Source: Octopus vulgaris | Taxonomy: Eukaryota | NCBI GenBank assembly: GCA_951406725.2 | Contig: OX597830.1 | Coordinates: 68,944,001-69,008,000, forward strand | Direction of reading: 5' to 3' | DNA length: 64,000 bases | Shown: positions 4,425-59,272 of the stretch, in pieces | How the letters are laid out: every line of letters starts with the position of its first letter | How positions within the stretch are numbered: position 1 is the first letter of the stretch | Position numbers and translations under genes: made by a program | Notes under the pieces: generated by a model | Seen by the model: only the letters and a program-made list of their open reading frames with translations | Told to the model about the DNA's origin: nothing | Database searches by the model: none

Positions 4425-4513
4425 GATTCTGGTCGAGCAGCAGATATTATGGCAGATGCTTACCAAACAAAACTCGAAAATTCAAATGAAGAAGATGAAG
4501 ACATAAATGACAG
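4425..4513 (+). CDS. Exon, module 1: [30 protein letters not shown]
   Basis: ttttaattatcag acceptor, AG|gtttgt donor; TRPM GSGRAADI motif; paralog of 46558-46643; phase 0 to 2. Confidence 0.9.
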
Positions 4514-7500
4514 GTTTGTTCTTCATTTCGATAGAACAATAATTTTTTTTTTTTTGCTTTTGTTGTTGTCATCACTGTTGATGTTATTAAATATGTTGTT
4601 GTTTATCCCCTATTAGCCCTGATAGAACAGGTCTATGAACATATGTAATCCAGTCTTTATTTTCCTGTATTTACATACTTATTAGAAGACTTTATTATTC
4701 CACTGTGTCAGTCTTCATTTTTGCTGAAAGGGTATGATTTGAAATGGATTTAACTTATATTTTTAGCAGTTTCGAGTGGCAAGGTAATCTGCTCCCTCCT
4801 TGGCTTGCAACTCTGCTATTACTATAGTTGATAGTTTGATCTTAGAGCTGATATTAATAGCGTTGTAGATATTTAGAGCTTTGACTGAAACTGAAGACTC
4901 ATCAGATTTCTTTAACTAAAGACTCAAACTTTTGGCAGTATGACATGACACTGATGATAATCATAATATTGATTTGTTATTTTGACACAAGGCTCCATAT
5001 TTGCTGGGGAAGGATAATGGGTCCAATTCAGGACATGCCTAGAGATGTTTGGTTTTGTCTGTTTCGTTTTCCATCCAATTTAAAAGATCAGATCAAGCAG
5101 TAGGTATCATGAAACAACATGAAAACACATTAATAGAAATGGTAATTATGAATAAATCTGGTATGGGTTTAACCAGTTCTGGGCACACTGGCTCGGGCTG
5201 TAAACTTAATTCATTCCATCTTTTAACACTGAAGTACCTGGTGGTGGTTCAACAGGAGCATTTGGTCCTTCACTGCCTTTAACAGTCCACAACGTTGTGA
5301 GCATTCAGAACCGGCCATGTCTTGATTTACAGTCTTTTCAATTCGTAGCATCACTGTTTGCTACAAGCTGACATGTAAGGGGTTCTCAAAAGGAGGTCTA
5401 CTAGCATATATGCCAGAGTTACTATGAGCAACATCTCTAGAAACAACCCCATTTCTTGTCAGGTCTCCCCAATCTATGTCTTCCAGGTTAATTATTTACA
5501 AGATCCAAAAATAGATTAGCAGCAACCCATGAGTTCTGTTTTATCCATGTCTTTACCTCATCAATCTTAGTTGTTCTGTAAAAATTATGGGTGGTGCCTT
5601 TCCTCCTTAAATTAAGATTTGTCCCATCATTTGTTATCTATATCACTAATAGTGTAGCCTGATTAACATAATTCTGATTAGGGCTCCAAGGTAGCCTAAC
5701 TTATCTTGTTTGTGACATCAGTATAGACCTTATGTTATTCTTTATAGCTAACTTTCTTTTAATCACTATTAAAAGATTTACATATTAATTTCTGAAATAA
5801 CTCTTCTTTCTCCATCAATTCTAAGGAAACTGAAAACTGATATCAGAGAGAAAATTATTAAAGAATTTGAAAAGGAATTGAAAGGAAAAGGGATAGATAA
5901 CATGGTTGACTATGTGTTGATGTCCCTAAAACGACCAAACTTGCTGACTGTTTATGATAAAGATTCAGTGAAAGAATTTGATCTAACAATGTTCAAAGCT
6001 GTATTCAAAGGTAAGAAATAGTTTAAAATTAAATTTTCAGTTTTTTTATATTTTCCAATCAGTTTGATTTTATTTGACGTAATAGTAATTTAGATTAATT
6101 ATTGCTAATTAGACTAATTATTACACTTGTAAAAAAATTGAGAGCTATTTTTAGTATTAAAAATCTAAAAAATCTAAATTAGGATGAAATATGCAGAGAA
6201 AGAATAACAATATTATTGATGACTTATACTATTATTTGTATATTTTCTTGTAAGTTTTGGGAGGTTAATCCTGTACCTGAAGTTTAATTAAGCTTCATCA
6301 ATAAGAGAATCGATGGCTGTATCAATGGATTTTCTAGAGAAGCTTCTGGTGTCTCAGTGAATTGTATGTTGTTATTAGCATTGTACTTTGTCTCTGGTGA
6401 AGACATTTAACTCACAGGTTCCCCTTTTCTATATTACTGAAAATAGATACAAAATAGTAAAAACAGTATGCTTCTGCAATTGTTATCACGATGAATATTT
6501 TCCAGATTTGAGGCACTCAATCTAACCTTAGCCATAGAAATAGTTAGTTGGAAATAGTTCTTGTCTTGACGAAATTGTCATTTAATATATCGGCACAAGA
6601 AGGCAGCAAACTGGCAGGAACGTTAGCATACTGGGTGAAATGCTTCGTGGTATTTGGTCTGTTTTTACATTCTGAGTTCATCCTTTTGGGTGTCGATAAA
6701 TTAAGTATCAGTTGCATATTGGGATCAATCTAATCCACTGGCCCCCTCTCCAAAAGTTTCGGGCTTTTTGCCTAGAGTAGAAAAGAATATATAGGCGCAG
6801 GCATGGCTGTGGTAAGAAGCTTGCTTCCCAACCACATGCTTCCAGGTTCAGTTCCACTGCATGGCACCTTGAGCAAGTGTCTTCTAAAATTGTTTCAGTA
6901 TGGATTTTGGGATGGCTGGACAAATGTGTCAAAGAGACAGAGACATTGAGAAGAGCCAAATTAATCAATACTGAAAATATTGCGCTCGACATAGACATAG
7001 AAATCAGAGAATTAGATCTCAATCGCCCACACATCTAGGAACAGTGGAAATAGAATACATCACAAAAATGAAAGAGTAAATTAGTAGAGAATATTAAAGA
7101 ATAGTTAGACTTATATTTAAACACTGAAGTCAATGCCGAAACTAATATAATAGAAACAAACATGCTAGCTATACTGATCATACTTGAAGAACAGTGAATT
7201 GAAAACCTAAGATAAAAAGACCCTATTAGCAGCAAACAGAAGTCACCACCCCACAGCAGACAAAAACAGAATATATCTACCCCTCTCAGGAGATGGTGTT
7301 CTTACACAGATAGAGAACTACAAAATAAAAGCAGTTGGACTGGAAATGTATTTACAAAGAACTGGTGCAATAGAGTGGAGAAAATTACTGCCCATATCAT
7401 GAACGAGTGCCATAGACTTGACCAAAATCTCTATAAGTTGTGACCACACGATCATGTAGTGAAAGTGCTCCACTGGAAACTGTGTGAAAAGTGAGGGCTA

Positions 7501-59036: not shown

Positions 59037-59272
59037 ATTAACATAAAACGTGAACATTGATGGCTGAGAGTGAATTTTATCTACAATATAGCAGTGTTAA
59101 ACTATTATATGTATTATCTCAATGATACTTGGTGTATTTCACTGTTTCATTATGGCAGGATAATGCAAGGGTGACTACATTTCTGTTATGAAAATATACC
59201 AACTTTTAATAAATTTATACAAAATCTAATTTTCATAAATGTACACATAGTGCTGTGCTACATGTAAATAAA
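59030..59272 (+). other. Candidate terminal exon (immediate stop plus 3' UTR)
   Basis: TACTAAC branch point at 58985-58991, long T/C tract, cag at 59027-59029; stop codons within a few codons in all three frames; AATAAA at 59208-59213 and 59267-59272. Confidence 0.5.

Follow-up and report, generated by a model that had tools for sequence, protein, structure and literature searches.

To our knowledge, TRPM channels have been described with one melastatin block per subunit. Prokaryotic SLOG/LSDAT domains (PF18171) belong to the same fold family as the sensor part of this block, and SLOG domains are linked to bacterial ThsA and its ligand. The described systems closest to the locus analysed here are the beta-TRPM (TRPM2-like) channels, with structures from human (TRPM2, PDB 6mix/6puo), zebrafish (6drj) and Nematostella (6co7), in which each subunit carries one MHR1/2-MHR3-MHR4 block. 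Passages of PMC6759353 on human TRPM2 describe ADP-ribose (ADPR) as held by Y295, R302 and R358 together with the start of helix 7, and closure of MHR1/2 as the driver of gating. In an excerpt of a preprint, M215A, Y295A and R358A weaken ADPR binding by human MHR1/2 from ~0.5 to 17, 1.8 and 7.8 uM, respectively (bioRxiv 10.64898/2026.03.30.715250).

Here we describe a 64-kb stretch of Octopus vulgaris DNA (the window), AT-rich and eukaryotic in character with microsatellites and retroelement remains. We read it, with a probability of about 0.6, as one copy of a five-module Octopus TRPM gene whose multi-module part was later amplified. The octopus family shares with beta-TRPMs the MHR1-3 fold of its modules, the LSDAT_euk domain and, in its 3′ half, MHR4, S1-S6 and the TRP helix. 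In contrast to them, it carries not one MHR1-3 block but four to five, its modules lack the Cys-rich lead and carry altered ADPR residues, the pore-filter Gly is replaced by Ala, and its channel-bearing models have no listed NUDT9H family. Compared with ThsA-type sensors, the repeated part has no effector domain and nucleotide binding by its modules is putative; PF18171 matches every module-bearing octopus model.

This repeated-sensor TRPM architecture is real, lies within a known family and is apparently undescribed. Literature searches, with subscription papers outside their coverage, turned up no publication in which a TRPM front end is repeated. The available portions of PMC13143021 describe one melastatin region in all members and hold no match for LOC106871768 or XP_014773893; Table S1 of that paper enters XP_052830018 as TRPM-beta. 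The accessible text of PMC13402157 contains neither SLOG nor tandem and excludes incomplete models, and among the accession prefixes searched only the canonical XP_052830098.1 and CAI9735236.1 matched; SLOG is likewise missing from the accessible text of PMC12919962. As annotations either split the locus or call it uncharacterised, and the available parts of two 2026 TRP surveys omit it or enter only its 3′ half, the octopus TRP repertoire appears to be undercounted.

Exons of the window and their continuation

The window comprises the end of module 2 (M2), the whole of module 3 (M3) and a linker mini-exon, probably within one copy of a beta-TRPM (TRPM2-like) gene specific to Octopus. With the gene rebuilt by coordinates, its features are as follows:

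4299..6506, + strand: genomic block with M2 exons F, G and introns, aligning to 46430-48859 of M3 at ~73% (blastn)
4425..4513, + strand: exon F of M2
5826..6010, + strand: exon G of M2 (MHR3 helices)
10466..10560, + strand: exon H of M2, final exon of the module, phase 0 end
16879..16916, + strand: exon A of M3, where the TRPM N-terminal motif restarts, phase 0 start
20589..20673, + strand: exon B of M3; the canonical TRPM Cys-rich segment is missing between A and B
27361..27541, + strand: exon C of M3, where the SLOG/LSDAT core begins
36958..37121, + strand: exon D of M3
39357..39516, + strand: exon E of M3, with the equivalents of human TRPM2 Y295 and R302
43641..43744, + strand: exon X of M3, with the counterpart of the Gly-Gly-Pro-Gly loop, which contains two Glu here
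46558..46643, + strand: exon F of M3, with the R358-equivalent position
48188..48360, + strand: exon G of M3
51652..51746, + strand: exon H of M3
57758..57783, + strand: 26-nt linker mini-exon at the M3/M4 boundary, kept in O. sinensis and O. bimaculoides models
59030..59272, + strand: candidate alternative terminal exon with acceptor, early stop and AATAAA at 59208 and 59267; two paralogous O. vulgaris models have a similar terminal peptide

All 13 window exons are intact with canonical splice sites. An earlier note on this DNA had been built on the observation that a phase 0 exon, 10466-10560, is followed by a restart of the TRPM N-terminus at 16879, and both the coordinates and the phase agree: the next coding exon is 16879-16916, and the 10560/16879 junction joins M2 to M3 in phase 0. 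The complete second module that it reported is equally borne out, since the nine exons from 16879 to 51746 add up to 1086 nt (362 codons) with zero stops and AG/GT at every end. Joined to the three upstream M2 exons and the 26-nt mini-exon, M3 lies in an open frame of 493 codons. A search with the M2-M3 junction returned five short matches, none from a transcript assembly. A boundary between two separate tandem genes, placed somewhere from 10560 to 16879, is very improbable: the upstream unit would have neither MHR4 nor channel and the downstream unit no start exon, and the junction keeps phase and appears in models of three species made by different annotations.

The usual MHR4 and transmembrane exons had also been said not to follow exon 10466-10560, and none lies in the window. 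Five MHR4/transmembrane/linker queries and the canonical channel half gave zero BLOSUM62 tblastn matches at E<0.05 within the window, in which a control module query gave 11 matches on the known exons. PAM30 tblastn of the MHR4/transmembrane/linker and channel-half queries gave eight matches, short and scattered. Hidden MHR4/transmembrane exons between 10560 and 16879 were considered and rejected, there being no BLOSUM62 tblastn match in the window.

An end of the gene after the second module, proposed earlier, is not supported. The window peptide equals residues 727-1180 of the O. vulgaris model CAI9735615.1, exactly over 454 residues, and this model, with at least 3.8 SLOG copies, then enters M4. 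Over ~490 residues, the peptide also shows 93% identity with O. sinensis XP_036366249 and 81% with O. bimaculoides XP_052830016, both of which pass from the mini-exon peptide through one further short exon into the fourth module. Neither the exon after 57758-57783 nor module-4 exons were located within the 64-kb window; since CAI9735615.1 has module 4 while its exons are absent here, the window copy runs past 64000. After 57783, 6,217 bases are left, a length that 3 of the 12 introns of the window gene exceed. The immediate stop noted earlier at the next acceptor was found again, at 59030 and in all three readings tried; its use as the sole gene end was rejected, because exon 57758-57783 is in frame, kept in the O. 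sinensis and O. bimaculoides models, and leads to a fourth module.

Two further observations concern these exons. The start of M3 exon X (43641-43655) is closer to an M2-type exon than to the M3 exon of the O. sinensis and O. bimaculoides models, which suggests gene conversion between modules. In the O. vulgaris predictions P0003, P0014, P0149, P0285 and P0006, small exons are skipped and the 38-nt module-start exon is read in the wrong frame, so that the true junctions are hidden.

Modules, channel half and gene copies

A single-exon search retrieved eight proteins among 24 candidates, all from Octopus and with two to four LSDAT stretches without Ion_trans. The full-length protein search gave 131 matches, of which 120 were listed, with channel halves shorter than 699 aa or without SLOG outside its reach. 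In the domain search that the earlier note had proposed, LSDAT_euk (PF18139), the MHR1/2 SLOG domain, was present in module-bearing models and followed by MHR3, and Ion_trans was found in some family models, although in none of the eight proteins above.

Segments of each model were assigned to reference modules M1-M5. O. bimaculoides XP_052830016 comprises the N-tail, M1, M2, M3 and M4 as far as exon X, and the next accessions, XP_052830018-21, comprise M4 from exon G, the acidic linker, M5, MHR4 and S1-S2. The gap between them is 34 residues, or one exon, as measured on O. sinensis XP_036366207, which reads across it into the acidic linker and ends there. The downstream O. bimaculoides model ends after S2 without an Ion_trans match. 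In O. vulgaris, a single model (CAI9735657.1) unites M4, the linker, M5 and Ion_trans, and in O. sinensis, XP_036366250 and XP_036366254 hold M5 exons, MHR4 and a complete channel, whose S4-S5, S6 and TRP helix align with canonical TRPM. The Gly to Ala change occurs at the pore-filter position of both channel-bearing models compared, and MHR4 was located only after M5 in family models.

Tiled from overlapping models of three Octopus species, a tiling that leans partly on accession adjacency and not on DNA order, the prototype would be one protein of ~2,750 aa in the order N-tail, M1, M2, M3, M4, acidic linker, M5 and channel. Among the matches listed, no single database protein holds five modules and the channel. 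At the level of these gene models, the fifth module is shown to lead into predicted MHR4, S1-S6 and TRP helix. The predicted six-helix channel and TRP helix accompany the repeat in CAI9735657 and XP_036366250/54, and the window copy is without them inside 64 kb. The earlier suggestion of a soluble protein rather than a channel therefore finds no support in the family prototype, given the channel at its end; it may hold for the window copy, as several copies of the vulgaris group apparently stop before the channel. If the five-module subunit is true, twenty clamshells would be placed under one pore, and nature would offer a test of MHR1-3 as an independent, repeatable sensor and of its non-ADP-ribose ligands.

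Among the matches listed, at least six O. vulgaris models have M3, at least four M4, at least two M5 and at least one a pore; these annotations show the predicted multi-module part amplified to at least six copies in this species. CAI9735606 starts in linker sequence (38/45 identical) and continues into the N-tail of a new copy. The M3 and pore model counts, this model and the linker-ending XP_036366207 make channel-less products plausible, and some copies, possibly the window copy among them, may encode a channel-less protein. A stronger form of this reading, in which a soluble multi-SLOG protein with some four modules is the sole product of the window copy, is a serious contender that we place short of even odds. 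The duplicated unit would then lack M5 and the channel and would end in M4, in the acidic linker or in the 59030 exon. Its support comes from the six M3 models against one pore model among the matches listed and from the two linker models just named, as well as from seven models across three species that stop in M4, either at exon X or immediately beyond it. A peptide resembling the 59030 reading closes two paralogous O. vulgaris models, and none of four multi-module models has a hydrophobic peak above 1.9. However, the stops at M4 exon X may be either donor read-through or a true end: they resemble splice-donor read-through, and the same donor reading occurs at window M3 exon X, in mid-gene. 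Furthermore, CAI9735658, with the 59030-like ending, adjoins the channel-bearing CAI9735657 in accession order, and short or SLOG-free channel halves could not surface in the full-length search. That the window copy has its own channel exons is conceivable, somewhat against the odds. Nothing relevant on naturally occurring TRPM isoforms without a channel came up in a literature search.

The sensor front is not uniform among channel-bearing models. O. sinensis isoforms X1-X4 (XP_036366250-53) carry M1-type exons A-E before M5 exon X and the channel, whereas isoform X5 (XP_036366254) has M5-type exons in place of the M1-type, a difference suggestive of alternative sensor fronts or of a chimeric gene. 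All modules compared share their exon phases, so that exon swaps keep the frame. Both observations would suit a locus in which several SLOG exon sets are spliced alternately onto shared channel exons, with varying sensor fronts and module numbers, but a chimeric gene formed by unequal crossing-over, or mis-mapping of reads among near-identical copies, yields the same models, and we regard such variable cassettes as unlikely.

We fetched 283 proteins, 282 of them with the domain and 16 with more than 1.25 copies: 11 from Octopus and 5 others. Among the non-octopus proteins, P0150 (flagged as contaminated, and scrambled), P0151 (which looks like two fused genes) and P0265 were not counted as support. 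XP_072049890.1 (RefSeq; P0284) and a EukProt model of the jellyfish Sanderia malayensis (P0152) have two LSDAT stretches before Ion_trans, as in the repeat-plus-channel octopus family, but these predictions have two modules only, 26-28% identical to the octopus stretch. Both lie outside the molluscan cephalopods and apparently arose independently, so that repeated SLOG fronts may have more than one origin. Just one cuttlefish protein was examined, and it has a single module.

Duplication, selection and the ADP-ribose site

We built an IQ-TREE tree of 37 rows, in which partial and chimeric segments were kept, P0005, P0006, P0008 and P0285 were left out, and no alpha-TRPM or TRPS row was present, so that the beta-clade label leans on Table S1 of PMC13143021. 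The 21 module segments all cluster together (100/99), beside two single-module octopus paralogues. Within this cluster, each of M1-M5 groups across species (100/99-100), O. bimaculoides included, and the modules fall among cephalopod TRPM2-like proteins (100/100), where the canonical cephalopod gene is their neighbour. All modules are without the Cys-rich lead of canonical TRPM. As far as sequences can tell, the tree shows that an MHR1-3 block minus this lead was tandemly duplicated into five module types before the split of O. bimaculoides from O. vulgaris and O. sinensis. The repeated duplication of a TRPM sensor inside one gene, put forward in the earlier note, is upheld by this tree and by the models from three Octopus species. 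The introns of M2 and M3 are still alignable, which places the duplication at the DNA level. Single-module paralogues and multi-module models point to one expanded cluster, apparently on the same contig in each species. The two single-module paralogues (P0017, P0020, P0018 and relatives) also carry altered ADPR residues.

Between O. bimaculoides and the vulgaris group, module orthologues are 76-81% identical, compared with 92.7% for canonical TRPM (XP_036366346, CAI9735236 and XP_052830098); the equivalent region in the two paralogues is 85-91% identical between species. For exons F-H of M2 against M3, dN/dS is 1.11 (bootstrap 0.63-1.81, 118 codons). Exons F and G of the two modules are 72.9% identical (247 columns) and their flanking introns 78.5% (1862 columns). 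Both exon indels preserve the frame, whereas 20 of 23 intron indels would break it; under neutrality, the expectation is P=0.0045 for no stop and P=0.025 for no frameshift. Residues change rapidly, yet the frame is protected, and relaxed constraint, positive selection and homogenisation of introns by gene conversion all fit.

These figures bear on a further reading, by which the window copy is a recent, decaying segmental duplicate or an uncollapsed haplotype without a function of its own. Over 333 residues, the window peptide and CAI9735241 share 98.8% identity, and a retroelement-like intronic ORF of the window recurs at 95% identity in the paralogous O. vulgaris model CAI9735598, which marks these copies as recent segmental duplicates. 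Several O. vulgaris models are chimeric or missing exons, and dN/dS is near 1. Against decay, all the window exons and splice sites are intact, and other copies differ from the window peptide by up to ~7-15%. Retention of frame since the older M2/M3 split is also improbable under neutrality, an argument that bears on the family and not on the window copy. We find decay improbable.

The fast change, kept frame and copy-number turnover single the family out as a candidate for a part in sensory or immune recognition specific to octopus. At its most ambitious, this would be a diversifying sensor locus, in which a giant five-clamshell channel is accompanied by amplified cassettes, which are spliced alternately to shared channel exons or yield soluble decoys, and diversifying selection acts on the clefts. 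We hold this to be a speculative idea with perhaps one chance in several; if true, it would fit a pathogen- or chemical-recognition array derived from a domain rooted in nucleotide signalling.

The structure prediction that the earlier note had called for returns a fold of the TRPM MHR1-3 type. The AlphaFold model of M3 has a pLDDT of 92.8 (65-row alignment), and Foldseek relates it to MHR1-3 of TRPM8, TRPM2 and TRPM7 with E values of 1e-28 to 1e-24 and TM scores of ~0.8-0.87. The model of M2 and M3 together gives two folded units with junction pLDDT below 50 and pTM 0.53 (16-row alignment), consistent with a loose linkage in the predicted structure.

ADPR positions were mapped through a mammalian TRPM2. 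At the equivalents of M215, Y295, R302 and R358, window M3 has V, S, K and K, compared with M, F, R and R in canonical octopus TRPM, and two Glu lie inside its Gly-Gly-Pro-Gly loop, which we infer to be the start of helix 7. Across the 21 module segments, Met is found in 0, an aromatic residue in 6, Arg302 in 17 and Arg358 in 6 (3 are without that column). M2 keeps both Arg and the Gly-Gly-Pro-Gly loop and has lost the Y295 segment. The ADP-ribose site of window M3 is eroded; an intact site was considered and rejected on the residues V, S, K, K and the two Glu. The ADP-ribose, or nucleotide, receptor suggested earlier is accordingly weakened by the changed site residues of the window's full module. 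Loss of ADPR binding in M3 is nonetheless putative, as F295 occurs and K358 is sometimes found in canonical mollusc TRPMs, and single alanines merely weaken binding.

Returning to the five-module gene as the preferred reading, we propose that the front-end MHR1-3 block of an octopus TRPM2-like gene was copied about five times in a row, with modules joined in phase 0. The product would be a tetrameric cation channel that has given up TRPM2-style gating by ADP-ribose. M5 would stay coupled to MHR4 and the gate, and M1-M4 would form a loosely linked string of clamshell domains, their clefts diversified for other ligands or proteins. We give this functional part of the proposal an even chance. Soluble four-module decoys or modulators could come from amplified copies that extend no further than the linker.

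Intronic repeats and retroelements

RVT_1 was found by Pfam in one of the six intronic ORFs tried. It lies at 2283-2804 (E 7.7e-16), within a decayed non-LTR retrotransposon at 1741-3510. Exons C and D are separated by a 9.4-kb intron, which holds several retroelement-like ORF fragments at 29800-34700; the ORF at 32781-33164 is 95% identical to the start of CAI9735598 and had been mistaken for a first exon in that model. On the minus strand, a long ORF at 63006-63998 leaves the end of the window; it has an Asn-rich stretch and no Pfam match, and its C-terminal part presumably resembles the GIY-YIG endonuclease of Penelope-like elements. A dispersed intronic repeat with a 66-bp internal period occurs at 3857-4105, 40497-40753 and 49801-49987, and an array of the dinucleotide AT, with 210 copies at 99% purity, occupies 50038-50456. 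Short local intron duplications at 38800-39350 and 61330-62130, visible as recurring ORF text and ~400 bp and 500 bp apart, could reflect recent duplication or assembly stutter.
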